64,000 bases of DNA from Patescibacteria group bacterium (GCA_028692545.1 JAQUXC010000002.1:28082-92081), one strand, 5' to 3'; positions 28,058 to 43,337 are shown, counted from the stretch's first letter. The notes: a model not told the origin generated them from the sequence alone. A program made the numbers and translations.

Positions 28058-28627
28058 ATGTTAAGTATTAGATTCAAAAGAGTTGGAAGAAAAAAAGCTC
28101 CATCCTATAGAATAGTTGTAATGGAAAAACAAAAAGATCCATGGTCAAACTATATAGAAAAGCTAGGATTTTTCGATCCAAAAACCAAAGAAACAGTATT
28201 AAAAGAAGACAGAATAAAATATTGGCTTAGTGTTGGAGCACAAGCTTCAAACACAGTAAGTAATTTACTTCTAAAAAATGGTATTATCGAAGATATAAAG
28301 AAAAAAGCTGTAAAAATCAGCAAAAAAAGACAAACAAAAATAGGTGATAAGAAAAAACTAGAAGAAGAGACAAAAGCCAAAAAAGAAGCAAAAGCTATAG
28401 CAGATGAAGAAGCAAGAGTTATGAAAGAAGCAGAAGAAGCAAAAACTAAAGAAGTTGTAGTAGAAGAAACACCCACTCCTGAAGAACCAAAAACTGAAAC
28501 TACAGAATCTACCCCTACTGAAGTTGCAGAAAATAAAGAAGCTCCTATTACTGAAAAACCTGTAGAAGAAATTCCAACTAAAGATTCTGTTGAAACATCA
28601 AAAATAGTAGAAGAAAAAACTGAATAA
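28058..28627 (+). CDS. rpsP: 30S ribosomal protein S16 with a Lys/Glu-rich C-terminal extension
   Basis: IRFKRVGRKKAPSYRIVV N-terminus. Confidence 0.85.
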   Translation: MLSIRFKRVGRKKAPSYRIVVMEKQKDPWSNYIEKLGFFDPKTKETVLKEDRIKYWLSVGAQASNTVSNLLLKNGIIEDIKKKAVKISKKRQTKIGDKKKLEEETKAKKEAKAIADEEARVMKEAEEAKTKEVVVEETPTPEEPKTETTESTPTEVAENKEAPITEKPVEEIPTKDSVETSKIVEEKTE

Positions 28628-28667: not shown

Positions 28668-28742
28668 GCGAGTATCGTATAGTGGCTATTATACGGCCTT
28701 GCCAAGGCTGAGAGACGGGTCCGATTCCCGTTACTCGCTCCA
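28668..28742 (+). tRNA. tRNA-Gly (anticodon GCC); integration target
   Basis: Acceptor GCGAGTA/TACTCGC, anticodon arm CGGCC-TTGCCAA-GGCTG, T-arm ACGGG-TCCGATT-CCCGT, and CCA. Confidence 0.8.
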
Positions 28743-28773
28743 TTAAAGACGCCTATTTATGGGTCTTTTTTGT

Positions 28774-29853
28774 TTATGGCAAACAAATTGTGGCCATATT
28801 GTGGCCAATATTATATTTCTGTTCACTTAAAGACCTTATTGCATCAACTGTCGCAAGTGGTCCAAGATGAGAATATCTCATTGTAGTTTTAACATCAGAA
28901 TGCCCCAATAACTCTTTTACAACAAGTATTGAAATTCCTCTTTGAACTAAATGAGAAGCAAATGTATGTCTTAAATTATGCCATCCTATTTTTCTTAAAC
29001 CACTTAACTGACAGGCACTATGAAGTTTGTTTAGTGCCAAATTTGAAGTATAAGATTTTCCATTAACATTTGGGAATACTAAACCTGTTTTTATAGATCT
29101 GGCTTCAAGCATATCAAGAAGTTGTGGTGCAAGAGGGATATATCTAATCTTATTACTTTTTGTGCTCCCAATTAATCCTCTGGTAATAGAACGACGAATA
29201 ATAATTTTCTTATTCTTAAGGTCAACATCACTCCAATCAAGGACTGCCAATTCCCCAAATCTTAAACCAGTCATATAAACCATCAGAATCATTTCTCCTA
29301 TTATTTCATTTGCGCCAATTAGAAGTGAAGATAACTCTTCATTACTTAGAAAATCAAATTTCTGTGGTGGAACATTTAATAACCTCATTTTTGGAACTTG
29401 ATTTACACACTCCCATTCTTGAGCCGTCTTAAGACATTTACTTAGAATTGTTAAAATATTGTTGATTGTCTTTGGACTTAATCCTTCCTCAAGTTTCTTT
29501 GCTTTGAACTCCTCTATCTTCAGCACACTTATCTTGTTTAGTGGGAGTTTACCAAAAAAAGGAATTAAATGTTTATCAAGAATATACTTTTTTCCTACTT
29601 GCTCAGATGGTTTATTATTATTCATTACATAGGTTTTATGCCATTTATATGAAAACTCTTCAAATAATGGAATCTTAATCTCTTTTACTTTTTCAACTAT
29701 CTCTTCACCACGAGCTAATTTCTGTCTAATCAAAGACTCGTAAACTTTGGCCCCAGCAAAGCTATTTTCAGGACTAGGCATTCTATATCTTATTCTATTG
29801 AATCTAAAACCTATCCAATATTTTTTTCCTCTCTTAAAAATACTCATATTCAT
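28774..29853 (-). CDS. int: Tyrosine site-specific integrase (phage integrase family)
   Basis: C-terminal catalytic box WHNLRHTFAS...LLGHSDVKTTMRYSHL (R, HxxR, Y). It sits adjacent to the tRNA. Confidence 0.9.
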   Translation of the reverse strand: MNMSIFKRGKKYWIGFRFNRIRYRMPSPENSFAGAKVYESLIRQKLARGEEIVEKVKEIKIPLFEEFSYKWHKTYVMNNNKPSEQVGKKYILDKHLIPFFGKLPLNKISVLKIEEFKAKKLEEGLSPKTINNILTILSKCLKTAQEWECVNQVPKMRLLNVPPQKFDFLSNEELSSLLIGANEIIGEMILMVYMTGLRFGELAVLDWSDVDLKNKKIIIRRSITRGLIGSTKSNKIRYIPLAPQLLDMLEARSIKTGLVFPNVNGKSYTSNLALNKLHSACQLSGLRKIGWHNLRHTFASHLVQRGISILVVKELLGHSDVKTTMRYSHLGPLATVDAIRSLSEQKYNIGHNMATICLP

Positions 29854-30077
29854 TTTGAGATTACGTTGACTTGGACATTGTCTAAATAAGCCAGAACATC
29901 TTCTTTCTTAAATCTTAAGCTACCACCAATTTTGTAAAACTTGATTACTCTTTGATCTACCAACCTATAAACAGTTGGAGTAGAAATACTAAAAAATTTA
30001 GCAAGATCAATTGGTGTTAAGAATGGTTTATTTATAATTTTGTCCAAATCTTCAATCATTTTATTGTTAAGGAACAA
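29850..30077 (-). CDS. xis: Excisionase/MerR-type HTH DNA-binding protein
   Basis: 75 aa; the ISTPTVYRLV helix-turn-helix overlaps the integrase start. Confidence 0.65.
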   Translation of the reverse strand: MFLNNKMIEDLDKIINKPFLTPIDLAKFFSISTPTVYRLVDQRVIKFYKIGGSLRFKKEDVLAYLDNVQVNVISK

Positions 30078-30251
30078 TATTGGTGAGATAAAAACCTCTA
30101 TCTCTGGACAATATCATCCTATCATTTATTAACCTTAATTTAAAGTTATTTTATAGGTTAATTTTAAGTTTTCTTAAATATTTATAATTTAGAATTTTTA
30201 GAGGAATTGACTATTAATTGATAATTAATTTAATTTTTAATAGTATTTTTT

Positions 30252-30355
30252 ACCTGTTAATTTACAGGAAAAGCAGATAAATTTATTTTTGCTGTTAACT
30301 TGCTGATAAAACAGCATTGATTACCTGATATTTATCTGATAAAGCAGATAATTTA
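30252..30355. promoter_or_regulatory. Iteron/operator cluster upstream of the xis-int operon
   Basis: At least five copies of CWGATAW (gcagataaa, gctgataaa, cctgatatt, tctgataaa, gcagataat), including the palindrome atctgataaagcagat, plus the cctgttaatttacagg palindrome. Confidence 0.5.
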
Positions 30356-30557
30356 TACTATCATTTATTTATCCTTTGTTAATCAAAATAGATAATTACA
30401 ATATAAATATTCAATTTTGTAAAGATTTCTATTTGATATAACAAGTAAATAACATATAGTCACAATACAGTAATAATATATTTATTTATCTTATAGGGAA
30501 AAACTATATAGTAACTGTATCTATTCTGTAACAATATATAGTTACATTGTTACTATA

Positions 30558-30941
30558 CTAGTTATTGAACTTTATATTCTCAATTTCGAGTTCTTCTTCA
30601 CTGTTATCTTGTACCTTAAATTTCTTCTTATAATATTCCTGTTGGGATTTTTTAAATTGTATTATTATTGCTTCCTCCATTTTTTTCCATTCTTCCTTTG
30701 GTTCTAAAAAAAACATTGGTTGATAACGCCCTGCAAAATAAGAAGGTGGCTGTATCCATATTTTGTCTCCAAACACATTATCATATTCAGAGTCCATAAT
30801 TCTAAATCCTTTAATGTTGATATTCTTATATCTTAATATTGCCGTGGCTTTTAACTTACCTTCATCTTTAATTTTAATAATGACTTCTACATCATTAACA
30901 TTAATTAAATTTTGATCACTTTTTTCATTTTCATTTTCCAT
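30558..30941 (-). CDS. Hypothetical element protein, possibly SpoVG-like nucleic-acid binding (weak)
   Basis: The central region KLKATAILRYKNINIKGFRIMDS...IQPPSY is loosely colinear with SpoVG. The operator-like repeats tatatagtaac lie 3' of it. Confidence 0.35.
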   Translation of the reverse strand: MENENEKSDQNLINVNDVEVIIKIKDEGKLKATAILRYKNINIKGFRIMDSEYDNVFGDKIWIQPPSYFAGRYQPMFFLEPKEEWKKMEEAIIIQFKKSQQEYYKKKFKVQDNSEEELEIENIKFNN

Positions 30942-31028
30942 ATTTTTTTGCTTTATTTGAATTAATTATTTAAAAATGTAACTATATTCATTTCTTTAAT
31001 TTAAATATCTATAAACGTCTATATACCC

Positions 31029-31256
31029 CTAAAATTTGTTGTCGTCAGATGGTTTTGAAAGACACTCGAGATAAAATAATAATTGCTTAACCTCATTTTT
31101 TACATAATCATCTTTTTCTACTAATTTATAAAACCAACGATGAATTGTTTGATTACTAAATCCTTGATCTTTAATTGCTTCTACAAAACAAATATATGAG
31201 TTCCAATATGGATTTCTTTTTTGTATTTTATTAAGTCTTCTTTCTAGTGATTTCAT
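31029..31256 (-). CDS. Small hypothetical protein on the element
   Basis: 75-aa ORF in an operon-like run on the minus strand. Confidence 0.4.
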   Translation of the reverse strand: MKSLERRLNKIQKRNPYWNSYICFVEAIKDQGFSNQTIHRWFYKLVEKDDYVKNEVKQLLFYLECLSKPSDDNKF

Positions 31257-31267
31257 AATGTTATTAA

Positions 31268-31504
31268 TTATTCTTTAATATAAATCAAATTTTTAATCTC
31301 TTTTATTAAACTAAAAAACGCTATTGGCTCAACCAATAACTCTTTTTTCCAAAATCCTTCTATTAATTTGTCTAAATCATTTTCTCTCTTGAAATAGAAT
31401 TGGACTCTTAATGGATTTATTTTGTCTATTCCCTCTATTTTGCAACCAAAATAGCAAAGAACTACACAAAGACTCAAATCACTTGTTGAAAATAAGTTTT
31501 TCAT
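31268..31504 (-). CDS. Small hypothetical protein on the element
   Basis: 78-aa ORF. Confidence 0.4.
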   Translation of the reverse strand: MKNLFSTSDLSLCVVLCYFGCKIEGIDKINPLRVQFYFKRENDLDKLIEGFWKKELLVEPIAFFSLIKEIKNLIYIKE

Positions 31505-31660
31505 ATTAGTCTTTTTCCTTTCATATAATTTTTATTAATATTAATTTTCTATTCTTCTTATGTAGGTATATTGTGAAATTTCACAAAATACAAAAAAATG
31601 GCTTGAAATAGCCATTTTTTTACAATTCTAAGTCTAAAAACTATATGTTTTTTTCACAGA

Positions 31661-32641
31661 TTACACATCATCTACACCTGGTAAATATTGTTTTTTTGTA
31701 TTTTTTGATAAATACCGTTTTTCTATATCTTTAAAACCATATATTTCTCCATTTCCACGTAAACTCTGTTCAGGATATATTTCAAATTTAGTTTCATACC
31801 CCCCACGCTCTTTAGTTGGATAAAATGGATCATCATCTATGGAAAAATAATTTTTTAAAACTTTAGATAATTTTGATTTAATTTGTCTAGTTTTTTCATT
31901 ATAATTTATACCAAAACACTCCTTATTTAAATTAAACTTTCCTTTATTTATAGAAAGCATTTTTAAAAAAAGCCATTGTTTATTTGGTTTTTTACTTTTT
32001 TGATGACATAAACACATTTTTTCAGAATTCGTTTTTTCTAAAAATTTATTTTTTACATATATATTTATATCATCTCCATTTAAAAAATTAATCCTTATAT
32101 CTTCCCATCCAGTACCCTCTGGAAATTTTTTTGATATTTTACAATTTTTTTCAATCTTTCTTGACTTTACAGTAATAAATTTATTTTCTAATTCTTCCTT
32201 ATATTCTATTAATTTTTTTATATTTGGCTTTGTAACTACAAAACACGTATTTCCTACACGTTCTACACTTTCAAAACACCTCTTTTCTTTAAGTTTAATT
32301 AAAAGACTATAACGTTCCACAATAGTCATCAAATTTTCTTCAATACCTAAATCATATGCTTCCATTTCGATTCTTTCTCTCCCTTCACGAGCTATACATT
32401 TTTCAATAATTTTGTCCATCATATAAACAAGTTCGTCTTTGTCACTTTTACTAATACGTTCTATTCTTATTCTTTCACGACTTTCTCGTTTTTTATCATT
32501 CTCTTCCATTCGTTGTTGATATGCACGATTCTCTTGTTCTTCTACGTCTTTAGAGCGAAGAAATTGATTAAATCCCAATTCTTGGAGGGTATGTTTATTA
32601 TTTTGTCCTAAACTATTAGTTAAATTATTATTTTTTTTCAT
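31661..32641 (-). CDS. Hypothetical protein with a charged coiled-coil N-terminus; candidate element replication/regulation protein
   Basis: 326-aa ORF with no recognisable catalytic motif. Confidence 0.5.
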   Translation of the reverse strand: MKKNNNLTNSLGQNNKHTLQELGFNQFLRSKDVEEQENRAYQQRMEENDKKRESRERIRIERISKSDKDELVYMMDKIIEKCIAREGRERIEMEAYDLGIEENLMTIVERYSLLIKLKEKRCFESVERVGNTCFVVTKPNIKKLIEYKEELENKFITVKSRKIEKNCKISKKFPEGTGWEDIRINFLNGDDINIYVKNKFLEKTNSEKMCLCHQKSKKPNKQWLFLKMLSINKGKFNLNKECFGINYNEKTRQIKSKLSKVLKNYFSIDDDPFYPTKERGGYETKFEIYPEQSLRGNGEIYGFKDIEKRYLSKNTKKQYLPGVDDV

Positions 32642-32786
32642 ATAATCTTCATATTAATCTATATTAAACTTAGCTGAAATTGATTTATTTTTCAAGATTT
32701 CAAGTTGATTTTTGTTAACAAAATTAACTTTACCCTCATAAATAAAGGAGGTATAATGGAAATATCTATAATTAAAAAATAAATAT

Positions 32787-34886
32787 ATGAAAAAAACATT
32801 TTTACTCCTTATAGTGTTTTTATGTCTAGGAGCAATACCTTATAATTTTAGTAATGCTGTTACACAAAGTCAAATTAGTTCTACGGTTCAAATTGTATGT
32901 CCAGATAATTATGGAAATTGGTTCAGTGGATCGGGAACGATAATAGACCAGAAAGGAATTATTTTAACCAATAAGCACGTTGTTACAGATGAATATGGTG
33001 GAATAATAGATACTTGTTTTATAGGATTTGTTGAATCAATAAGTAAAGAACCAAATTTTGGAACAGAAATAAACCCTAATTTAGCTGAAGTAAAATATCA
33101 TACCACTTCTCAGGATATGGATGTAGCACTTCTATACCTAGACAATCCTACTAATAAAACATATACATATGTTGATATTTGGAATTCTAATTCTGATAAT
33201 TTAAAATTTGGAGATAAGATTGAAGCTGTTGGGTTTCCTGGAATTGGTGGATCCACTATAACATACACATCTGGTGATTTTAGTGGTTTTGGTAGTAACT
33301 CTGATGGAACACAAAATTATATAAAAACAACAACTCCACTAGAACATGGAAATTCAGGAGGATCTGCATATAATTCTACGGAACAATTTATTGGTATTCC
33401 AACGATGGTTGTAGCTGGCACATTGAATTCATTAAGTTATTTGTTATCTGTAAATAGTATTAAAAATTGGTTATCTGAAATTTTAGGGAGTCAATATCAA
33501 CAAGGTATTGTAGAACAGGAACCCATTATAGAAAGACCGACTACTAGCATTCAAAATGATATCACTCCACCGAATTTTAACTTGTCAGGTCAGCTCTGTT
33601 ATTGGGTCTATGAAGATAATTATGATTTTATAGGAGGAAGATGTTTTCCAAAAAATTTAGGAAAATTAGAACCATATAATCATATACAATTTATATTATT
33701 TACTGAAGATCTATATAAAATTGATCCTAATGGGTTAGCAAAGACATATTATTATTTTGATACAGTTCCACATAGTAAAATTGATAATAATGTTATTAAA
33801 TATGTGCCAAAGTATTTGAATTCAGCACAGACTACACTTGCTCTAACGGAAATTATTGATATAGATAGCCCTGGTAAATACTACCTTACCTTTTTTGGGG
33901 AAGATAATCTTGGTAACGTTTCTAGTCCGTATATTTATGAATACGAATACCAACCAGAAATTTTTAAAACGATAAAAAATTTATATTTTTACAAAGATTC
34001 TAATAAAAAACAGCCATTAAAAGCTTACAATGTAGATTTTGATAAAATTGACCAAGGATGGATGTGGGAACCTTTAGAGTGCTACACTAGATTAGATAAT
34101 ATTACTGTAGATTGGAAATATCCAGTTGTTTATGAAGGGTATTCAACAAAGAAAATAAATAGTTTTACAGATTTTGGGGGTACTAAATTTACTGGGAATT
34201 TACAAAACTCTAACCAATATACTATTACAAATATATCTAATGGAAAAATAGTTCAATGGAAAGAGAATCACTATCAAAACGGATTGTCACCCGAAGAACA
34301 AATTTACCAGAAAAGTTTGTCTCCTCATAACAATATATATTATGAATTTTATATGAATCCAACAAATAGTAATATTGTTGAATTAGAACATAAACATAGA
34401 TTTTTAAAATTGATATATAATGAAAATCTTGAACAAGACTTATTATGTAATGATAACTTAGTTTTTGCAGAGACAAATGATTATCCAATTATTGTAGACC
34501 AGGGATTATCTAATCGTTTAAAAGGTAAGTTACTTCTTCAGGTAAACCAAGGAGGTAGAGTTTGGTATGTAAATCCAGATGATGGTAAAAGATTTGAAGT
34601 AACCTTTGCTAATGCATTACCTCTATTTGAAAAATTTGCTCTTGGAATATCTAATAAAGATTTAGAAAAAATTTCATTACACACTAATAATTGGACATCT
34701 GCTACAGGGAATAGATTGAAAGGAAAATTACTTTTACAGGTAGAAGATGGCGGTAGAATTTGGTATGTAGATTTTGATGGCAAAAGATGGGAAGTAACTT
34801 GGGCTAATTTAATGACTTTATTTGAAAGTTTGTCATTAGGTATTACAAACGATAATCTAAATAAAATAGAAATTGGGAGTTTATAA
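32787..34886 (+). CDS. Secreted trypsin-like (S1/chymotrypsin fold) serine protease with a C-terminal tandem GKLLLQV-GGRIWYV repeat domain
   Basis: Signal peptide. Catalytic triad context TNKHVV (His), DVALLYLD (Asp) and GNSGGSAY (Ser). Two roughly 55-aa C-terminal repeats end in KIEIGSL. Confidence 0.8.
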   Translation: MKKTFLLLIVFLCLGAIPYNFSNAVTQSQISSTVQIVCPDNYGNWFSGSGTIIDQKGIILTNKHVVTDEYGGIIDTCFIGFVESISKEPNFGTEINPNLAEVKYHTTSQDMDVALLYLDNPTNKTYTYVDIWNSNSDNLKFGDKIEAVGFPGIGGSTITYTSGDFSGFGSNSDGTQNYIKTTTPLEHGNSGGSAYNSTEQFIGIPTMVVAGTLNSLSYLLSVNSIKNWLSEILGSQYQQGIVEQEPIIERPTTSIQNDITPPNFNLSGQLCYWVYEDNYDFIGGRCFPKNLGKLEPYNHIQFILFTEDLYKIDPNGLAKTYYYFDTVPHSKIDNNVIKYVPKYLNSAQTTLALTEIIDIDSPGKYYLTFFGEDNLGNVSSPYIYEYEYQPEIFKTIKNLYFYKDSNKKQPLKAYNVDFDKIDQGWMWEPLECYTRLDNITVDWKYPVVYEGYSTKKINSFTDFGGTKFTGNLQNSNQYTITNISNGKIVQWKENHYQNGLSPEEQIYQKSLSPHNNIYYEFYMNPTNSNIVELEHKHRFLKLIYNENLEQDLLCNDNLVFAETNDYPIIVDQGLSNRLKGKLLLQVNQGGRVWYVNPDDGKRFEVTFANALPLFEKFALGISNKDLEKISLHTNNWTSATGNRLKGKLLLQVEDGGRIWYVDFDGKRWEVTWANLMTLFESLSLGITNDNLNKIEIGSL

Positions 34887-34903
34887 ATAATAATTTTAAA
34901 TAT

Positions 34904-36388
34904 ATGAAAAAAATTTATATTCCTTTATTAATCTTATCATTTGTATTTATCATATTACCACAAAAAATAAAAGCATCTGGATGTATGGAATATGGAATGT
35001 GGGCTTATGAAGATTTTACTGGTTATTGTAAGTGTATGAGTGGGTATGTATGGGGTAAATTTATGGGTCAAGATTATTGTATTTCTGGTGGTTCATATTG
35101 TTATGATAAATATGGTTATGGGTCACAATATGATTCAATCTCGAAAAGCTGTGAATGTAAAAATGGATATGTATGGGATGATGGTTTATTTGGTAATTCA
35201 ACTTGTGTATCTTGTTCTAGTAAATACGGTTTTGGTGCGACTTCAGATTATCTAGGTAGTGGCTGTAAATGTATGAGTGGATATGTATGGGGTAAAAATT
35301 TCCTCGGGGAAGATTATTGTGTTTCTGGGGATTCAAAATGTTCTAGCCTTTATGGTTACGGTTCAGAATATAATTCTATATCTCAAAAATGTGAATGCAA
35401 AAGTGGATATGTTTGGGACACTAATGCATCTAACGATTTAATATGCATATCTTGTTCTAGTAAATACGGTTTTGGGTCAGAATATGATTCACTCTCAAAA
35501 AGTTGTGAATGCAAAAGTGGATATGAATTATCCTATAAAACTTTTGGTAGCGGATTAGAATGTATTAGTTGCTCTACTAAATATGGTTCTCATTCCTCTT
35601 ATGACTATATTACTGAAAAATGTAAGTGTAATGACGGATATACATTAGATTCAGATAATAAATGTGTTGAAAAACAAAACAACGTTTATTTTATATTAAA
35701 AGAACTTGATGAAAATAATGATAAAGCAATTATAGAAAATGAATATACAAGCTCACGATATTTAGTAGAGTATGGAATTGGATGTCTTTTAATAGACAAT
35801 TATGTAGACGAAAAAATAGTTATAAATCTAGGAACAGATTTTAATATTGATGTATGGGATAAAATAGTTTTACAAAATGATAATGATACTTGTTCTATTT
35901 TAGATGTTTCTAATGTTAATTATAACTATAGTTTAAAAGAACAAGATAGTAGTGATGATAGTATATTATATACAATTCCACAAAAAATAGAGCCTAATAC
36001 TAAAATAGACAAAACATTATCCAAAAAAATGAGTGGGAAGTTACTTTTACAAGTTGAGGAAGGTGGTAGAATTTGGTATGTGGATACAAAAGAAAATAAA
36101 AGATATGAAGTTATTTTTGCGAATGCCTTGGCTTTATTTGAAAAATTATCCATTGGAATAACGAATGCAGATCTTGATAAAATATCAGACAAAAAATCTA
36201 CGACATTAGGTAATTCAAATAAAGGAAAATTATTTTTACAAGTAGAAGAAGGTGGGAGGATATGGTATATAGATACAAATGGATTAAAACACGAAGTAAC
36301 ATTTGCAAATTTAATGAATTTATTCAAAAGCCTATCTCTTGGTATTACAAATGAAAATCTTGATAAAATAGAAATTGGAAGTTTATAA
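34904..36388 (+). CDS. Secreted Cys-rich repeat protein sharing the same C-terminal tandem repeat domain
   Basis: Six or seven CKCMSGYVWG/CECKSGYVWD modules, then two GKLLLQVEEGGRIWYVD...LSLGITN..LDKIEIGSL repeats. The DNA paralogy with 34500-34880 is visible. Confidence 0.8.
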   Translation: MKKIYIPLLILSFVFIILPQKIKASGCMEYGMWAYEDFTGYCKCMSGYVWGKFMGQDYCISGGSYCYDKYGYGSQYDSISKSCECKNGYVWDDGLFGNSTCVSCSSKYGFGATSDYLGSGCKCMSGYVWGKNFLGEDYCVSGDSKCSSLYGYGSEYNSISQKCECKSGYVWDTNASNDLICISCSSKYGFGSEYDSLSKSCECKSGYELSYKTFGSGLECISCSTKYGSHSSYDYITEKCKCNDGYTLDSDNKCVEKQNNVYFILKELDENNDKAIIENEYTSSRYLVEYGIGCLLIDNYVDEKIVINLGTDFNIDVWDKIVLQNDNDTCSILDVSNVNYNYSLKEQDSSDDSILYTIPQKIEPNTKIDKTLSKKMSGKLLLQVEEGGRIWYVDTKENKRYEVIFANALALFEKLSIGITNADLDKISDKKSTTLGNSNKGKLFLQVEEGGRIWYIDTNGLKHEVTFANLMNLFKSLSLGITNENLDKIEIGSL

Positions 36389-36401
36389 ATATATTAAATA
36401 T

Positions 36402-36641
36402 ATGAACATTAAATTATTTTTTATTTTATTCTCATCAATCTTAATTTTGTCTGGTTGCACAACAAATAGCGCTAGTAATTATGATACAGTGAGTCACCCC
36501 ACCATAGAAGAAAGAGAAAGGGATGATTCCAGATTCGAATTGTGTAGTAAGAAATGTGCTGGACTTGATGCTAAAAATTGTATGAACAGTGCTGGTCAAG
36601 CAAGTTGTCCATATTCTGATTGTCTTGATGAGTGTTTCTAA
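36402..36641 (+). CDS. Small Cys-rich lipoprotein
   Basis: LILSGC lipobox. Start placed at the in-frame MNIKLFF, downstream of the track start at 36375. Confidence 0.5.
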   Translation: MNIKLFFILFSSILILSGCTTNSASNYDTVSHPTIEERERDDSRFELCSKKCAGLDAKNCMNSAGQASCPYSDCLDECF

Positions 36642-36665
36642 AAAAACTTTAAAATTTATAATAAT

Positions 36666-36956
36666 ATGAAGAGGATATTAAAATTCATTAAAAAAGATAT
36701 AAAAAATAATTTACGATTTTATATAGTCGTAATATTTTTAATAATAGGATTTTTGTTATTAAACTCGGCTATAGAAGATTTACAATGGTCCACTAATAAA
36801 ACATATCGTGAGTGTAGAAATGCTCAATCTTATTGTGTTGAAGCTCAATCTAGTTGTTCTGGTTGTGAAGATACTATGTATTATTGTGATGAAGCTCAAT
36901 CTAGTTGTCAAAATGCCGAATCGATGTGTGAGAAATGTGAATATTATAGCTGGTAA
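36666..36956 (+). CDS. Small Cys-rich secreted/membrane protein
   Basis: N-terminal TM, then 12 Cys in the 50 aa CVEAQSSCSGCED...CEKCEYY. Confidence 0.5.
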   Translation: MKRILKFIKKDIKNNLRFYIVVIFLIIGFLLLNSAIEDLQWSTNKTYRECRNAQSYCVEAQSSCSGCEDTMYYCDEAQSSCQNAESMCEKCEYYSW

Positions 36957-36978
36957 ATCTCATATTGATATAAAAGAT

Positions 36979-37356
36979 ATGAAACCAATATTTAAAAAAA
37001 GGATACATCTATTGTTAATACTTATATTTATTATTCCATTTTTAAGTGGATGTGATGAGGTTATGGATAATACAAGTTATCATAATAATTATTCACAGCC
37101 ACCAGCTATAGAAAATATTGTAAAACAAGAACAACCAATAAAAAATGTAATACCAGAAGTTAATACAGAAACTAATAATAATTTATCCAATGATAATCAT
37201 TACACGAATGTAGATGGTAATAAGGTTCATTCACCAGCATATTCTGACACTATTCCAGTTGGTGCATCAGCAAAATGTAGAGATGGGAGCTATAGTTTCA
37301 GCCAACATAGAAGTGGAACTTGTTCTCATCACGGTGGGGTGGCTAAATGGTATTAA
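36979..37356 (+). CDS. Lipoprotein with a DUF3761-like C-terminal motif
   Basis: FLSGC lipobox. C-terminal CRDGSYSFSQHRSGTCSHHGGVAKW resembles the DUF3761 signature. The track ORF 36808-37356 includes an implausible overlapping upstream extension. Confidence 0.55.
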   Translation: MKPIFKKRIHLLLILIFIIPFLSGCDEVMDNTSYHNNYSQPPAIENIVKQEQPIKNVIPEVNTETNNNLSNDNHYTNVDGNKVHSPAYSDTIPVGASAKCRDGSYSFSQHRSGTCSHHGGVAKWY

Positions 37357-37375
37357 TAATTAATATATAAAATAT

Positions 37376-37630
37376 ATGAAAAAAATAATAATTTTAATAA
37401 TAGTGTTATTAATTCTAGGAGTTGCTGGATTTTTCTTTTATGAAAAACAAAAGGAGCGAAAATATGAAAATTGTGTAAGTGTTTGTTGTTCTGGTAGCGA
37501 AGTTTATGAAAATGGAGATTGTTATACTAATATGATTCATAATGCATCTACCGGGGAAATAATTAAAGAATATTCATTAGCGGTCACAGACAAAGAATGT
37601 AAAAATATTTGTATACAAAAATATAAATAA
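37376..37630 (+). CDS. Small membrane-anchored Cys-containing protein
   Basis: N-terminal TM; 84 aa. Confidence 0.45.
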   Translation: MKKIIILIIVLLILGVAGFFFYEKQKERKYENCVSVCCSGSEVYENGDCYTNMIHNASTGEIIKEYSLAVTDKECKNICIQKYK

Positions 37631-37642
37631 TAAATAAACCAT

Positions 37643-38239
37643 ATGTTTTGTCATAGATGCGGAAAAGAGTTATTAGAAAATGCTAAATTTTGTTCTTCCT
37701 GTGGAACAGAGGTTCATCAGATAGACAAATCAAAAAATAACAATCAAACTTCTACTCAACAAAAAGGAGGAAAAATTTCTGGACAAAAAATATTTAAAAT
37801 AATTGTTATAATAATTCTAATTTTAACGTTTATTAGCCCGTCTATATCACAAAAGCAAATTGCTTTATTAGATGGAGTAATTAATATAACTATTTGGGCT
37901 ATTATTTTATATATAATATCACTTTTTATATCTCCACAAACAAAATCTTTGAAAGCAAAAAATAATGAAATAAAGAAAGAAATAGCAAAAGAAGATAAAG
38001 AAATAAAAGAACTAAAAACAAAATTATTAGAAAAAGAAGATTTATTGGCAATATTATATGTATATAGTTTAATTATAATATTTTTTATTATAATAATTTT
38101 ACTTGTATTATTAAATAATTTTAACAGAAATCTTCTTGCAGTAAATATAATTCTTTTAATAATTATCATAATTTTAATGATATTTATTAAAAAAATAAAA
38201 ATAGAGACTAATTTAATTAGACAACAATTAAAAAAATAG
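37643..38239 (+). CDS. Zinc-ribbon membrane protein
   Basis: N-terminal CHRCGKEL...CSSCG zinc ribbon, then TM helices and a charged coiled-coil segment. Confidence 0.55.
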   Translation: MFCHRCGKELLENAKFCSSCGTEVHQIDKSKNNNQTSTQQKGGKISGQKIFKIIVIIILILTFISPSISQKQIALLDGVINITIWAIILYIISLFISPQTKSLKAKNNEIKKEIAKEDKEIKELKTKLLEKEDLLAILYVYSLIIIFFIIIILLVLLNNFNRNLLAVNIILLIIIIILMIFIKKIKIETNLIRQQLKK

Positions 38240-38250
38240 AAGAATAAAGT

Positions 38251-38667
38251 ATGAAAATATTTTCAAAAAAAGAATTTCCTTATATTTTAACATTGTTTAG
38301 CATTTGGATTTTTGCCTTAGCTTACTATTTTCCAAATTTTCCTGCTAACTTTCCAGCTGGTGCTGGAAGAATAAAAATATATAATTATAATACAAATTAT
38401 CTCAAGTTGATATCTGTGATATTATTTACAATAGGATTTTACATATCAATTAGAAGAAGATTATTTCCTAAGACTATAGATGAAATCGCAGAAGAATCAT
38501 ATGAAAAGGCTAAAAAAATTGTTGTAACTTTTAATAAGATATCTGCTACTGCTATACAAAGAGAATTAAAAATTGGTTATGCAGCATCTGCTAGATTATT
38601 AGATATGTTAGAAGATAATGGAATAATCGGACCAGCTAATGGTCCCAGACCAAGAGAAGTTTTATAA
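38251..38667 (+). CDS. Membrane protein with a C-terminal FtsK-gamma (winged-helix DNA-binding) domain
   Basis: ISATAIQRELKIGYAASARLLDMLEDNGIIGPANG matches the FtsK gamma domain consensus. N-terminal TM helices. Confidence 0.65.
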   Translation: MKIFSKKEFPYILTLFSIWIFALAYYFPNFPANFPAGAGRIKIYNYNTNYLKLISVILFTIGFYISIRRRLFPKTIDEIAEESYEKAKKIVVTFNKISATAIQRELKIGYAASARLLDMLEDNGIIGPANGPRPREVL

Positions 38668-38711
38668 ATAATTTGGTAATAATATAAACATAATTATTAT
38701 TTTTAAAAAAT

Positions 38712-39257
38712 ATGGACGAAATAAATAAGTACAAAGACTCTATAGAATATATAGAGAATGAATTTCAAAAAATAATAAAGGAGAATCCATTAAATTTTGA
38801 TAAGGAATATTTATCCCAAATAAGGTTTAAAGTTACTAGTTTTAAAAAAGGTGATGATCAATCTTATGATGTAAATTACGAAATAAAAGGCTTTGACTAT
38901 GGAGATGATTATAGTAATGGTTTAATTTTAAGTTCTAGAGATGGACTTTCAATCGAAGAAGAAATTGCAAAATCAATCTATGACGATATAGTAATGGGTA
39001 CAGACTTAATGAGGAAAGATCCTAAAGTAAGAGAATGCATAGATAGGGCAGAAGAAGAAGCAGAAGAAATACTTGAAAACAAAAAGAAGAAAGATAAAAA
39101 GAAATTTTGGGGTTGGGCTAGACCAGAAATAGGAAAAGGTCATCATTTAGGAGATTGTCATATCTTTTGGGAAGAAAAGAAAAGAATCTTAAAAGAAAAA
39201 TATAATATAGATTGGAAAACTCCTGCGGAGATAAACCCAAGTGCTAAATTTGATTGA
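38712..39257 (+). CDS. Hypothetical charged protein
   Basis: 181-aa ORF. Confidence 0.45.
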   Translation: MDEINKYKDSIEYIENEFQKIIKENPLNFDKEYLSQIRFKVTSFKKGDDQSYDVNYEIKGFDYGDDYSNGLILSSRDGLSIEEEIAKSIYDDIVMGTDLMRKDPKVRECIDRAEEEAEEILENKKKKDKKKFWGWARPEIGKGHHLGDCHIFWEEKKRILKEKYNIDWKTPAEINPSAKFD

Positions 39258-39375
39258 TATAATTAAATCAATCTTATAAACTCATTAAAAAGTGATTTAA
39301 AAAAATAAAGATTCTAATATAAAAATATATGAGAGACAAGATTTTAGATAGAATTAAGAAATCTAATAGGTTTCT

Positions 39376-40530
39376 TTGGCTTGGAAACTATTGTATAATA
39401 TTTATATGGATAAAGTTAAATCAATAAATAAAGAAAATTTAGAAATTGCAAGAAATAATGTCGGTCTGAGTACTATGTCGGCAACAAGAAAAATTTCAAA
39501 ATCAAAAATTGATTTAGTTTTTGAATGGGAAAATGGAACATCACTGCCAACGTGGAATCAAATAACTAGATTAGCAAAAATATATGATATTCCTGAGGTA
39601 CTCTTTTTTTCTAGAGAGTCTATTAAGAAGAACAAAACAATTCCAGACTATAGGATTGGACAAGATTCATATAATGATGAAAAAATACAGAAACTCATTA
39701 ATATTGTTATTAGAAGACAACGATGGTTAAAACAAAATATTAAATATAACCTAAAAAAAAATGTTTTACAGGGTAGTGGTAAAGAGATTCAAAATCCAGA
39801 TCAATTAGCTTTATTAATAAAAGAAAAACTAAATATTGATTCTTATGAAATAAAAAATATTTCTGGAGTAAGCTCTCGCAAAAAAGTATTGGATTATTTA
39901 ATAAGAAAAGCAGAGGATTGTGGAATATTTATTGGAAAAACCATACATTACCATAGAATAAAAGTAGACGATATGAGAGGCCTTTATATTTCTGATGATT
40001 ATTGTCCTTATATTATTCTTAATAGAAGAGATGCTCTTTCTGCACAGATATTTTCGCTTATACACGAGTTAGCTCATTTGTTTAGAAAAACTGACTCAAT
40101 ATCAAATAGCTTAGAGTTTAGACATTTAAATAAAAACATAAACTACGAGGAAATATTTTGTAATAAAGTTGCCGCTGAATTGTTATTGCCTACAAAAGAT
40201 CTTAAAAAAACATTTTATGATATATCCGACATTAATAATATGGCAGAAATTTACAAAGTTAGTAGATTAATGATTTTTTATAGACTTAAAGATCTAAATA
40301 AAATTGATAAAAATGATATAGATAATTTAGAAGAAAAAATACGTAAAGAAACTGATGAAGACGTTATACATAAAAATAATAAAAAAAATACTGGCGGAAG
40401 TTATGTTAATAATATGAGAGATTCAAATGGAAAACTTTTTAATAACATTATTTTAGAACTTTATTTTGATAAAAAAATAAATTACGTAGAGGCATCTAAT
40501 TTACTCAAATTCTCTGTTGAAAGTCTATGA
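39376..40530 (+). CDS. XRE-family HTH fused to an ImmA/IrrE (COG2856) zinc metallopeptidase
   Basis: N-terminal HTH LEIARNNVGLSTMSATRKISKSKIDLVFEWENG and C-terminal HEXXH (HELAHLF). Confidence 0.75.
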   Translation: MAWKLLYNIYMDKVKSINKENLEIARNNVGLSTMSATRKISKSKIDLVFEWENGTSLPTWNQITRLAKIYDIPEVLFFSRESIKKNKTIPDYRIGQDSYNDEKIQKLINIVIRRQRWLKQNIKYNLKKNVLQGSGKEIQNPDQLALLIKEKLNIDSYEIKNISGVSSRKKVLDYLIRKAEDCGIFIGKTIHYHRIKVDDMRGLYISDDYCPYIILNRRDALSAQIFSLIHELAHLFRKTDSISNSLEFRHLNKNINYEEIFCNKVAAELLLPTKDLKKTFYDISDINNMAEIYKVSRLMIFYRLKDLNKIDKNDIDNLEEKIRKETDEDVIHKNNKKNTGGSYVNNMRDSNGKLFNNIILELYFDKKINYVEASNLLKFSVESL

Positions 40531-41015
40531 TAAATAATTTAACAAAAATAAAATACTTAGTTGATACAAATGTTTTAATAGAGCTTTCTCTCTGGAAGCC
40601 TATTGCTCTAAATTTAAACAAAGATTTTTGGTATAGACTCTCAGATGCTTTAAAGAATGATAAATGGGTACTTCTCGATGTTGTCGTTTGGGAGGTGCGT
40701 TATGATAAAGACTTAAAAAAATGGCTCTCTGAACAAAAAAATAAAGGGTTGGTTAAAAAAATTAATGATAATAATAAAAATCGTGCTGTTGAAATCAATA
40801 ATCAATACAAAATAATTGATGACATTACTGGCAAATCAACGGTAGACACTTATTTGTTAGCTTATGCAGAAGCCGAAAATTTAGGTATTTTTTCAAGAGA
40901 AAGCTCTAGAATTAATTCTAATCAATTATACAAAATTCCAGATATATGTAATATTTTAAATATCAATAAAACTAGAAGCCCTAAGGCTTTTTTAAAAGAA
41001 ATAGGATTTAATTAA
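40527..41015 (+). CDS. DUF4411-like PIN-fold protein; candidate toxin partner of the HTH-ImmA protein
   Basis: 4-nt overlap with the upstream gene. N-terminal YLVDTNVLIE acidic PIN-like motif. Size about 160 aa. Confidence 0.5.
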   Translation: MINNLTKIKYLVDTNVLIELSLWKPIALNLNKDFWYRLSDALKNDKWVLLDVVVWEVRYDKDLKKWLSEQKNKGLVKKINDNNKNRAVEINNQYKIIDDITGKSTVDTYLLAYAEAENLGIFSRESSRINSNQLYKIPDICNILNINKTRSPKAFLKEIGFN

Positions 41016-41075
41016 TAAATAGTCATAATTTTTTAGATACATATAAATTCTTTTTCTTTTTTATTGATTTATTTT

Positions 41076-41120
41076 AGCAATTCCCTACAATCACAGTTCT
41101 AACGTCCTCCACTAAGGAGT
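41076..41120 (+). repeat. Copy 1 of a roughly 40-bp repeat, (agcaattccc)tacaatcacagYYctaacRtcc...aaggag
   Basis: Copies 2 and 3 lie at 44171-44208 and 45443-45480. Each precedes a higher-GC gene or region. Confidence 0.6.
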
Positions 41121-41225
41121 ATATAATAGTCTTAAATGACTATTTTTGTTTATTATTATATTTGACATAAACTAAACATTATTGTAATGTGTAAACAAAT
41201 TTAACATTCTAATCATCAGGAGGAA

Positions 41226-42935
41226 ATGATGAAAAAGCTTCTTATTGTGGCCATTTTAATGGCTTTTTGCCTAGTTTTAATAGCACAAGCACCTGATACT
41301 CTTTGGACAAGGACCTTTGGCGGTCCAAACAATGAGTGTATGGAAAATATTAAAGCTACCAGTGATGGGGGTTGCATAATGGTTGGATCAACCAATTCTT
41401 ATAGGAGTGGTGGTCAAGATGCATACATAATCAAAATTGATATTTATGGAAATTTACAATGGAGTAGAACTTTTGGCGGTAGTCAACAAGACATTGCTTA
41501 TTGTGTTGATGAAACACCAACTGGTTATTGCATAACTGGATTTACAAGGTCTTATGATAGTCCAGACAATACCAATCTTTGGCTTTTTAAAGTTGATACA
41601 GCCGGAAGTTATCAATGGATGAGAACTTACGGTGGCAGTCAAGATGATGTCGGCGTATCTTTGCAATATACCACAGACAACGGATATATTATTACTGGTT
41701 ATATTCGTTCAAATAACGAATTATCAGGTGATCCATCCGGCGACATATGGCTTATTAAAACGAACTGGTTTGGTGAAAGAGAATGGCACAGGCGTTTTGT
41801 TTTTGATGATTGTTGGGATGTCGGAAGATCTGTTACTCAAACATCTGACGGAGGCTATGCAATAGCCGGAAAACAAAACAATAAAGCCTGCTTGATTAAA
41901 ACTGATTCTAATGGTTCTTTACAGTGGACAAGAGATTTTCCTGGTTATCCAGATTGCTATTCCATGCAACAGATTTCTGATGGTGGTTATATCTTATGCG
42001 GTGCTACCACTAACATATCTGGCACTTGGGATTTCTATTTACTCAAAACTGACTCAGATGGAAATTTACAATGGAGTAGAAATTTTGGTGGTACTCAAGA
42101 AGATTATGGTCGTTCTGTAGCCCAAACATCAGATGGTGGATATGTAATATTTGGAACGACAAACTCTTTTGGTTTAGGAAATTATGATACTTGGGTAATC
42201 AAAACCGATGCTAATGGAAATGAACAATGGAATAAAACTATTGGCACCACTGGAGATAATCAAGGTTATTCAATAGCACAAACATTGGATGACGGATATG
42301 TAATGGCCGGATATTCAGATGAACAAGCATATGCAATTCGTCTCAGAGGTAGACTCGTATTATTTAATGGAACCCCAACATCTGGATATATTCCACTAAC
42401 GGTTACTTTTTCTGATCAATCAATAATTCAAAATTTAGTAACTTCCTGGCAGTGGACATTTGGTGACGGTCAAACCTCATTAGAACAAAATCCAATCCAT
42501 ACCTATACGCAAGCTGGGCAGTATTCCGTGAAATTAAAAATCATTGATTCGAGCGGTGTTGCTGATTCGCTTATCAAAACCAATTACATCACAGTCCTGG
42601 AAGTGCCACCTGCTCCACCTGAGAACTTAACAATTACAATTTCAGGTCGCAATGCAATTTTGAATTGGGAACCAGTTACTACAACAATCTTCAATAACCC
42701 AATAACTATTACTGGTTACGTAATATACTTCAGTGAAATTCCTGATACAAACTTTTGGTATCTCGGATGCACCGAAGCCATAACCTACACACATTATCGC
42801 GTGACTCAATATGCCAGCGGTATGTTCTACAGAGTTGTTGCTGTCACAGATGATTGGAATCGAATAAGAAGCATAACACAAAGAAATCCTCATATTCAAC
42901 TTGGGCAACTAAATGCCTTGTTGAAAAAAGAGTGA
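41226..42935 (+). CDS. Secreted beta-propeller-repeat (SBBP-like) protein with a PKD domain and a C-terminal Ig/FN3-like region
   Basis: Signal peptide. At least eight repeats of TFGG(S/T)QxDxG.S...DGGY...G.T.S. PKD motif WQWTFGDGQTS...HTY. Strong AGGAGG RBS. GC is visibly higher than in the neighbours. Confidence 0.75.
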   Translation: MMKKLLIVAILMAFCLVLIAQAPDTLWTRTFGGPNNECMENIKATSDGGCIMVGSTNSYRSGGQDAYIIKIDIYGNLQWSRTFGGSQQDIAYCVDETPTGYCITGFTRSYDSPDNTNLWLFKVDTAGSYQWMRTYGGSQDDVGVSLQYTTDNGYIITGYIRSNNELSGDPSGDIWLIKTNWFGEREWHRRFVFDDCWDVGRSVTQTSDGGYAIAGKQNNKACLIKTDSNGSLQWTRDFPGYPDCYSMQQISDGGYILCGATTNISGTWDFYLLKTDSDGNLQWSRNFGGTQEDYGRSVAQTSDGGYVIFGTTNSFGLGNYDTWVIKTDANGNEQWNKTIGTTGDNQGYSIAQTLDDGYVMAGYSDEQAYAIRLRGRLVLFNGTPTSGYIPLTVTFSDQSIIQNLVTSWQWTFGDGQTSLEQNPIHTYTQAGQYSVKLKIIDSSGVADSLIKTNYITVLEVPPAPPENLTITISGRNAILNWEPVTTTIFNNPITITGYVIYFSEIPDTNFWYLGCTEAITYTHYRVTQYASGMFYRVVAVTDDWNRIRSITQRNPHIQLGQLNALLKKE

Positions 42936-43174
42936 TAAACAATTTCAAAATCAATAAAAGAAGCCTTGGGATAATATCTCGAGGCTTCTCTATTTTTTTG
43001 CATTTCTACCAATATTGTTGTGGCCATATTGTGGCCATATTGTGTCCAAGAAATGATTATATGTAATGAAGTTAATAGGAATTGATGGCATTTGATAATC
43101 AATATTATTCAGTATTAATGGGCTTTTATTCACTTTACTCAATGTTTATCAAATGTTTGTAAAAACTGCTTTCT

Positions 43175-43203
43175 CGGGTCCGATTCCCGTTACTCGCTCC
43201 ATT
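43175..43203 (+). repeat. attR: a 29-bp direct repeat of the tRNA-Gly 3' end
   Basis: Identical to 28716-28744. Confidence 0.8.
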
Positions 43204-43337
43204 CGAAAGAGCCCATTTATATTGGGTTTTTTTGATACCATTAAAGAAAAAAGCAAACTGAGATATATTTTTATTTGGATTGTTGATATAATTAAATTAG
43301 GATAATTAATGTCGAGCTGAGCTCAAAATATATTTTT

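Follow-up and report, generated by a model that had tools for sequence, protein, structure and literature searches.

A 64,000-nucleotide stretch from a Patescibacteria group bacterium (GCA_028692545.1, JAQUXC010000002.1:28082-92081; hereafter the window, with positions counted from its first nucleotide) harbors a genomic island integrated at a tRNA-Gly(GCC) gene, and short tandem repeats of an 11-bp unit are located just inside both ends of this island. We propose that these repeats very probably serve as arm-type (P and P') sites to which the island-encoded tyrosine integrase (Int), a predicted heterobivalent enzyme, would bind. This assignment, which had already been put forward in the first-pass annotation of the sequence, is supported by the confinement of the motif to the island ends, the conservation of the layout in related elements, the agreement of the units between the two arms of each element, the topology of the modelled N-terminal domain of Int, and the covariation of Int residue 13 with the sequence of the unit.

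Tandem units at the island ends and in related elements

The insert between the 29-bp exact repeats that represent the att cores (Table 1) measures 14,459 bp (14.46 kb), and the recombination module, consisting of the tyrosine integrase gene and an excisionase-family helix-turn-helix (HTH) gene, adjoins attL. The left set of repeats comprises one exact copy of TGTGGCCATAT (28789-28799) followed by TGTGGCCAATAT, which contains one additional A (28800-28811), while the right set comprises two exact copies of TGTGGCCATAT (43019-43029 and 43030-43040) followed by the degenerate TGTGTCCAAG (43041-43050). All copies are oriented on a single strand, and Tandem Repeats Finder reported a period of 11 at 28787-28812 and at 43018-43048. 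The left set begins 44 bp past the left 29-bp repeat, and the right set ends approximately 124 to 127 bp before the right one. The first-pass description of tandem 11-bp repeats of the same orientation at both ends, some 45 bp and 130 bp inside attL and attR, is thus confirmed by reading of the sequence, by the detected period, and by the count of exact copies, with measured distances of 44 bp and approximately 124 bp.

Exact copies of TGTGGCCATAT number three in the 64-kb window, compared to a mean of 0.03 across 100 dinucleotide-preserving shuffles of the window, none of which reached three copies, and all three are positioned within approximately 160 bp of the att repeats, just inside the island ends. 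With two mismatches allowed, the window contained 19 matches to the 11-mer, no enrichment over the 14.2 expected, and the signal therefore depends on the exact tandem copies. The sequence of the unit is unrelated to that of the 29-bp core. The left set is located inside the final ~12 codons of the integrase open reading frame (ORF) and is hence not intergenic. The isolated copy of the unit core within the first codons of the PKD/propeller gene (9-nt core at 41244-41252) is not conserved in relatives and probably reflects chance.

The spacer between the far units and the core is the expected place for sites of bending proteins or of an Xis-like protein. Short A/T-rich motifs with a 10- to 12-bp periodicity are present in this spacer of the window, including TTTACTCAAATG, reported by Tandem Repeats Finder in 2.2 copies at 43134-43158, and the corresponding far-arm spacer of a related element, L172 (3700-3768), contains TTATCAA four times; such periodic motifs represent candidate Xis or bending-protein sites. 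In the spacers of the window, these motifs are weak, and no IHF, Fis or Xis site could be assigned.

Table 1. Features of the island and its ends in the window (a dot denotes a feature without strand)
Feature	Position	Strand	Basis or remark
tRNA-Gly(GCC), integration target, with a second copy of its 3' part at the opposite island end	28668..28742	+	ARAGORN; overlap with the 29-bp repeat
attL core, left copy of the 29-bp direct repeat CGGGTCCGATTCCCGTTACTCGCTCCATT	28716..28744	.	Longest exact string common to both end regions
Island-supplied terminator-like hairpin with T run, immediately 3' of the tRNA, between core and near-arm units	28747..28775	+	Reading of the sequence; block AAAAAACAGGCTTTT... 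equivalent in relatives (alignment A4)
Tyrosine integrase, 359 aa (357 aa from the second ATG)	28774..29853	-	Pfam PF14659 and PF00589; PHROG 1 integrase over residues 5-343
Pair of tandem 11-bp units forming the putative near (P'-like) arm, GGCCACAATAT GGCCACAATTT (int orientation; register conserved in relatives)	28785..28811	-	Located in the final codons of int
Xis-like excisionase-family HTH protein, candidate recombination directionality factor	29850..30059	-	4-nt overlap with the int start
Isolated unit-core copy ATTGTGGCCATTT	41244..41256	+	Within the opening codons of the PKD/propeller gene (41226-42935); distance to the far arm, 1.8 kb
Triplet of tandem 11-bp units forming the putative far (P-like) arm, GGACACAATAT GGCCACAATAT GGCCACAACAA (int orientation)	43015..43050	-	Same direction as the near-arm units
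Far-arm spacer, units to core, ~124 bp	43051..43174	.	Alignment A3 of four far arms; Tandem Repeats Finder
attR core, right copy of the 29-bp repeat, tRNA 3' fragment	43175..43203	.	

Four further complete elements, found via Int homologues of 51 to 56% identity and delimited by their att repeats, were compared with the island of the window (Table 2). The first-pass annotation had proposed examining whether homologous elements conserve the repeats, and tandem 11-bp units are indeed present at equivalent positions in these relatives. In all five complete elements, the units share one common direction and the far-arm distance is conserved at 118 to 127 bp, while across the ~20-kb locus of each element the near-arm core has no, or hardly any, other copies. 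The unit varies from element to element (GGCCACAAT, GGrGACAAT, TGGCACCA, or GGGTACAAT), yet both arms of any one element agree, as would be anticipated if these sites were recognised by a protein specific to the element.

Table 2. Arm units and distances in the five complete elements
Element	tRNA target	Size	Near units	Far units	Far units to att	Near units to tRNA
Window	Gly(GCC)	14.5 kb	GGCCACAATAT GGCCACAATTT	GGACACAATAT GGCCACAATAT GGCCACAACAA	127 bp	62 bp (tRNA 3' end)
L164	Thr(GGT)	9.6 kb	GGCCACAATAT GGCCACAATCC	GGACACAATAT GGCCACAATGT GGCCAGGAC	127 bp	123 bp
L172	Ala(TGC)	7.6 kb	CTGGCACCATAG TGGCACCACT	CTGGCACCATAG TGGCACCACTT TGCCAC	127 bp	122 bp
L168	Glu(CTC)	8.8 kb	GGGGACAATGC GGAGACAATTT	GGGTACAATGC GGGGACAATTT	118 bp	124 bp
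L176	Glu	9.4 kb	GGGTACAATAT GACTACAATTT	GGGTACAATAC GGGGACAATGT and weaker GGAC units	118 bp	123 bp

Among relatives known from one end, the int tail of L002 (75% identity) retains GGCCACAATAT GGCCACAATCC, and that of L178 (76% identity) carries TGTCACAATAG TGTCACAATTG. Three viral contigs from IMG/VR (L089, L099 and L133) harbor the pair in the int tail together with a second pair 129 to 216 bp past the stop codon; in L089 and L133, a tRNA-like fragment is readable between the two pairs, where ARAGORN calls no tRNA. With this arrangement, the three contigs display a contiguous attP layout, the unintegrated form of such an element.

A short metagenome contig, L008, contains three tandem pairs, one in the int tail (1324-1345) and two located 200 and 506 bp past the int stop (1589-1610 and 1895-1916). 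The far arm of L176 (1940-2000) comprises approximately five GGAC-type units at 10- to 11-bp spacing. In L164, a third copy of the att repeat is located 1 kb beyond the far att copy (527-549 and 1544-1567), with an NYN-domain gene between the two, and may represent a small tandem islet or the remnant of another insertion. The tRNA-Glu gene by fmt/def is occupied by this family in five Patescibacteria contigs (L165, L168, L174, L176 and L179), ~30 to 60 bp downstream of the int stop, and has the appearance of an integration hot spot, since the arm units of its five occupants differ.

The integrase and the reader of the units

The integrase of the window, an identical copy of which is present at NCBI in the Patescibacteria metagenome-assembled genome GCA_028708725.1, begins with a domain of strand-strand-strand-helix topology (residues 1-50), which is followed by a SAM-like core-binding domain and the catalytic domain. 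The AlphaFold model of the full-length protein has a mean predicted local distance difference test (pLDDT) score of 84.8. Residues 1-50 were modelled as three strands and a helix with a pLDDT of 85 to 88 both in the full-length model (30 homologues) and in a model of the N terminus alone (27 homologues), and a low-confidence linker (residues 52-56) joins this domain to the SAM-like and catalytic domains. Foldseek comparison of the full-length model returned Tn1549 Int and, over the whole length, lambda Int (1z1b; 354 columns, 15 to 16% identity), while the model of the N-terminal domain returned the arm domains of P4-like/HAI7 integrases (PDB 3rmp and 3ju0) among its top, albeit weak, matches (E values of 0.4 to 1.2). 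A PDB profile search with the integrase covered the core-binding and catalytic domains only. The N-terminal domain, as modelled, has the topology of an arm-binding domain.

Covariation between Int and the unit was assessed among 109 homologues grouped by repeat class. Outside the tail, the Int column most strongly associated with repeat class is residue 13, located in the middle of strand 2, with a normalised mutual information of 0.545 compared to 0.366 for the next column. Glycine, alanine or serine at this position accompanies GGCCACA, aspartate or asparagine accompanies GGTCACA, and arginine accompanies GGAGACA (12 of 12 cases), while S-I-Y or N-I-S at residues 13-15 accompanies CACCAC-type units. 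One close contrast is provided by homologue P0003, whose Int is 76% identical to that of the window, bears D13, and is associated with the units TGTCACAAT. Residues 13-15 of strand 2 are, on this comparative basis, candidate specificity determinants.

A different reader of the units is conceivable, namely the Xis-like HTH protein, acting as directionality factor, or another element-encoded regulator. This protein matches excisionase-family models (Pfam HTH_17 at 1.7e-13; NCBIfam TIGR01764 at 45.8 bits against a cut-off of 28.8), a gene of this type is located directly upstream of int in nearly all relatives, and Xis sequences, too, differ among elements with different units. Furthermore, directionality factors typically bind short direct repeats approximately one helical turn apart, as exemplified by X1, X1.5 and X2 of lambda (PMC4880445). 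The characterised sites of directionality factors are, however, confined to one arm, between the arm-type sites and the core (PMC4880445), whereas in the present elements a unit common to both arms is found at the outer end of each, as are the P1P2 and P'1P'2 pairs of phage mv4. L164 and L179 possess the repeats, yet no HTH_17 gene was called beside their int genes, and among protein features the strongest correlation with the unit is shown by a residue of the Int N-terminal domain. A role of the repeats as Xis or regulator sites in place of Int sites is, therefore, considered unlikely.

Iterons, or another origin or partition element through which an excised circle would replicate, had been offered in the first-pass annotation as an alternative to integrase sites. 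Short direct repeats with helical periodicity are in keeping with such a function, as are the AAA_25 (RepA/DnaB-like) gene found near int in some relatives and the REP_ORF2-G2P gene of L170. This alternative has found no support in the island itself, in which Pfam, PHROGs and NCBIfam detected no replication initiator. Iterons are expected as a cluster beside the gene of the initiator that binds them, usually with an AT-rich unwinding region. Each cluster of the island contains just two or three units, and instead of a single cluster at an origin there are two, each at a set distance from the att core. One of the two falls within the int ORF, and they would be united only after excision; moreover, the layout is retained across elements of differing cargo. 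An origin function is accordingly very improbable.

Assignment of the units to Int is itself faced with several findings that weigh against it. The evidence for the family is comparative throughout. A Pfam search with the isolated N terminus of the integrase, at E values of up to 10, matched no arm-binding model, and because the Foldseek scores are also not significant for so small a domain, the topology agrees with that of arm-binding domains but homology to them is not established. The association of residue 13 with the unit is confounded by shared ancestry, which inflates such associations, and clearly independent contrasts are few (e.g., P0001 and P0002 versus P0003); it is therefore supportive and does not constitute proof. 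The small number and close similarity of the available Xis proteins preclude a comparison with Int as a tracker of the unit. The two-arm layout is documented in five of the ten integrated elements, the far ends of the other five (L002, L165, L173, L174 and L179) lying outside the 10-kb flanks or the contig. Finally, the near-arm spacing of the window is atypical, at 62 bp from units to tRNA compared to 101 bp in L002 and 122 to 124 bp in four relatives. Alignment A4 (window 28745-28811 with L002, L164, L168, L172 and L176) reveals that the window lacks a variable stretch of ~60 bp between the units and the tRNA terminator hairpin, owing to which its int stops four codons after the tail peptide GHNMATI. 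The copy in the window may thus be a deletion derivative whose activity has been altered or lost.

On the assignment of the units to Int, we infer that this protein binds the units and bridges arm and core, with roles for Xis and for bending proteins. Residues 1-50, i.e., the small N-terminal domain, would bind the 11-bp units, while each such protomer would bind the 29-bp core region through its core-binding and catalytic domains. Adjacent units being one helical turn apart, neighbouring N-terminal domains would be placed on nearly one face of the DNA and could bind cooperatively. Bridging between arm and core, aided by DNA bending and the Xis-like protein, would fold attL and attR into an excisive complex, and excision would produce a single attP of ~251 bp in which three units, 124 bp, the 29-bp core, 44 bp and two units follow one another, with all units in one direction.

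The C-terminal tail of the integrase

In int orientation, the near-arm pair of the window reads GGC CAC AAT ATG GCC ACA ATT, that is, two 11-nt units translated in two frames, giving G-H-N-M-A-T-I. More than 100 homologues (50 to 76% identity) carry this peptide or a variant of it in their C-terminal tail, a region that is variable in other respects, and the variants GHNMATI, GHNMVTI, GDNTETI, WHHSGTT and GQQVGNT match the rule that one unit is read in two frames. By this rule, GHNMVTI predicts the unit GGTCACAATAT, GHNMDTI predicts GGACACAATAT, GDNTETI and GDIVETI predict GGAGACA..., WHHSGTT predicts TGGCACCACTC, and GQQVGNT predicts GGGCAACAAGT.

The rule was formalised by dynamic programming over synonymous codons. 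A window of seven residues compatible with a perfect 11-nt tandem was found in 89 of 119 homologue tails, compared to 0.29% of windows in the protein body and 16.5% of shuffled tails, the latter being the background of a best-window-in-tail statistic at zero mismatches, which supports the DNA evidence and is no substitute for it. The codons employed in the near arm are rare in this genome (GGC, 8.6% of glycine codons; CAC, 21% of histidine codons; GCC, 6.2% of alanine codons), and the C-terminal tail of the integrase was modelled as disordered by AlphaFold (pLDDT of 45 to 57). On account of the two-frame variants, the tandem test, the rare codons and the disordered tail, the conserved tail peptide is best read as a constraint at the DNA level, acting on a stretch that the int ORF traverses.

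At the DNA level, eleven relatives of at least 50% identity were compared (ten integrated elements and the fragment L178), and a tail tandem matching at no fewer than 9 of 11 nt was counted in nine; the loci named as carrying such a tandem are L002, L005, L164, L165, L168, L169, L172, L173, L178 and L179, while the tail tandem of L174 and L176 reaches only 8 of 11 nt. Tail pairs are also present in the distant high-GC relatives L007 to L010. Searches of metagenome and viral contigs with the family alignment yielded, among the matches listed, mostly distant integrases of 25 to 35% identity, with only L005 to L010, L089, L099 and L133 being informative. Among the 155 integrases scored, mostly distant ones, a tail tandem of at least 9 of 11 nt was found in 13, compared to none in int-body controls, and the exact 20-mer GGCCACAATATGGCCACAAT had no match in viral contigs. 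The tail tandem belongs to this integrase family and some neighbours and is not a property of tyrosine integrases generally.

It may be argued, conversely, that the left repeat owes its preservation to the function of GHNMATI as a C-terminal peptide of Int, the right repeat being an int 3' leftover from an earlier tandem insertion. The breadth of its conservation would suit such a peptide. Its variants, however, obey the nucleotide two-frame rule and not amino acid similarity, in that alanine, valine, aspartate and glycine interchange and glycine codons change silently, and neither the use of rare codons nor the modelled disorder of the tail is what this explanation would predict. Nor does the far arm resemble a leftover, being located across the core from the near arm, with three units in place of two and at a different distance, a distance which is conserved in the five elements. 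This explanation is regarded as even less probable than that of iterons. Least likely is a chance repeat in AT-rich DNA, which would accord with the absence of enrichment in the two-mismatch search and was rejected on the basis of the exact-copy count against shuffles, the placement of all exact copies at the element ends, and the recurrence of the layout in independent elements.

Returning to arm-type sites, a broader proposal is that the GHNMATI-type motif of this large, mostly Patescibacteria family is no protein motif but the two-frame translation of P' arm sites; we advance this generalisation tentatively and at somewhat less than even odds. If true, the unit would be readable from the protein alone, which would yield a covariation set of Int N-terminal domains against 11-bp units and, possibly, a recognition code for arm domains. 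Furthermore, by binding within the 3' part of int, the protein could exert feedback on its own expression.

The island, comparable systems and wider meaning

The insert is a tRNA-integrating genomic island, given that int is located beside a tRNA gene and that a direct repeat of the 3' part of this tRNA bounds the insert. ARAGORN identified no complete tRNA at the attR copy at the far end, and the G+C content of the insert equals that of its flanks (28%). The original hairpin of the tRNA gene has been displaced to the far end of the island (43206-43235), its place at 28747-28775 being taken by the island-supplied hairpin; in relatives, the hairpin block AAAACCCAATAAAAAACAGGCTTTT... is conserved at the DNA level, within or 3' of the int ORF alike. 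The cargo encodes a secreted trypsin-like protease, a cysteine-rich EGF-like repeat protein, a DUF3761 protein, a small FtsK-gamma protein, an IrrE/M78 peptidase with a DUF4411/PIN partner, and a PKD/propeller protein; genes for capsid, terminase or conjugation functions are absent from the island. Neither an empty site in a related genome nor a circular junction was recovered for this island. A genome-contig search with its integrase returned a Serratia protein of 25% identity as the sole match, which indicates that the species representative set lacks this island.

Within the cargo, the genes of the trypsin-like protease and the adjoining EGF-like protein share ~390 nt of homologous 3' sequence (34495-34889 and 36006-36391; 71 to 77% identity), and the EGF-like gene contains an internal 240-nt tandem repeat (35027-35475). 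The intergenic region upstream of the xis-int operon (30135-30341) contains four short tandem repeats of period 11 (TTAATTTAAAG, AATTGACAATT, TTGCTGATAAC and TTACCTGATAT) as well as an imperfect 45-nt direct repeat (30239-30283 and 30310-30354), and these repeats may serve as operator or regulatory sites. The ribosomal protein S16 gene at 28058-28627 encodes 189 aa, of which only residues 8-64 match the S16 domain, the remainder being a repetitive Lys/Glu/Ala-rich C-terminal extension.

The closest known case is the attP of phage mv4, followed by that of lambda. Phage mv4 of Lactobacillus delbrueckii, whose integrase belongs to the Tn916-Int subgroup, targets the 3' end of a tRNA gene. In its attP (~215 bp), adjacent 11-bp arm sites, all in direct repeat, form two pairs, one at the outer end of each arm, and stabilisation of Int binding requires an adjacent pair in which both sites have the full 11 bp (bioRxiv 10.1101/2023.11.06.565760). 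The reconstructed attP of the window resembles it in size (~251 bp), in its three plus two adjacent 11-bp units arranged in direct repeat at the outer ends, and in its tRNA target. It differs in the sequence of the unit (the mv4 sites contain AACTAG), in the host phylum, and in belonging to a cargo island, known here by sequence comparison, and not to a phage. No statement placing the mv4 sites inside the int ORF was found.

Lambda Int is heterobivalent, with a small N-terminal domain for arm-type sites in addition to core-binding and catalytic domains, and its attP of ~240 bp follows a P and P' arm logic in which arm sites are located at a distance from the core on both sides (PMC4880445). 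The window shares with lambda the tandem adjacent sites in the int-side arm and the xis gene upstream of int. It differs in that Int identity is just 15 to 16%, in that the lambda target is an intergenic attB and not a tRNA gene, and in that lambda has two plus three sites compared to three plus two here, the triplet being in the arm far from int. The modelled N-terminal domain resembles the P4-like/HAI7 arm domains and the AP2-like fold in its three-stranded sheet packed on a helix, whereas P4-like integrases carry a DUF4102-type domain and differently organised arm sites, and the integrase of the window has no Pfam Arm-DNA-bind match. In common with other tRNA-targeting genomic islands, that of the window has int by the tRNA 3' end, a direct repeat of the 3' part of the tRNA, a tRNA 3' end and terminator supplied by the element, and cargo unrelated to phage or conjugation. 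Unlike most such islands, whose arm-type sites have never been mapped, the sites of this family are readable from comparative data.

Arm-type sites have been mapped experimentally for few integrases, namely those of lambda, HP1, L5, P2, P22, Tn916, CTnDOT and mv4. To our knowledge, such sites are unknown for most genomic islands, and the Patescibacteria are a poorly studied phylum with almost no genetic tools. The mechanism proposed here is the classical one of lambda and mv4, and the finding therefore extends a known principle without adding anything new in mechanism. Its added value lies in the putative sites being readable across a large Patescibacteria-centred family, in the apparent imprint of these sites as a pseudo-conserved peptide, and in their covariation with a residue of the Int N-terminal domain. 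In this family, a lineage-specific 11-bp unit can be read by comparison, together with its footprint in the protein sequence of the integrase. A warning for annotation also follows, in that selection at the DNA level can yield a conserved C-terminal peptide as a by-product. The sites and the candidate reader residues represent concrete predictions for recombination in Patescibacteria and could help to define a minimal attP for integration vectors.

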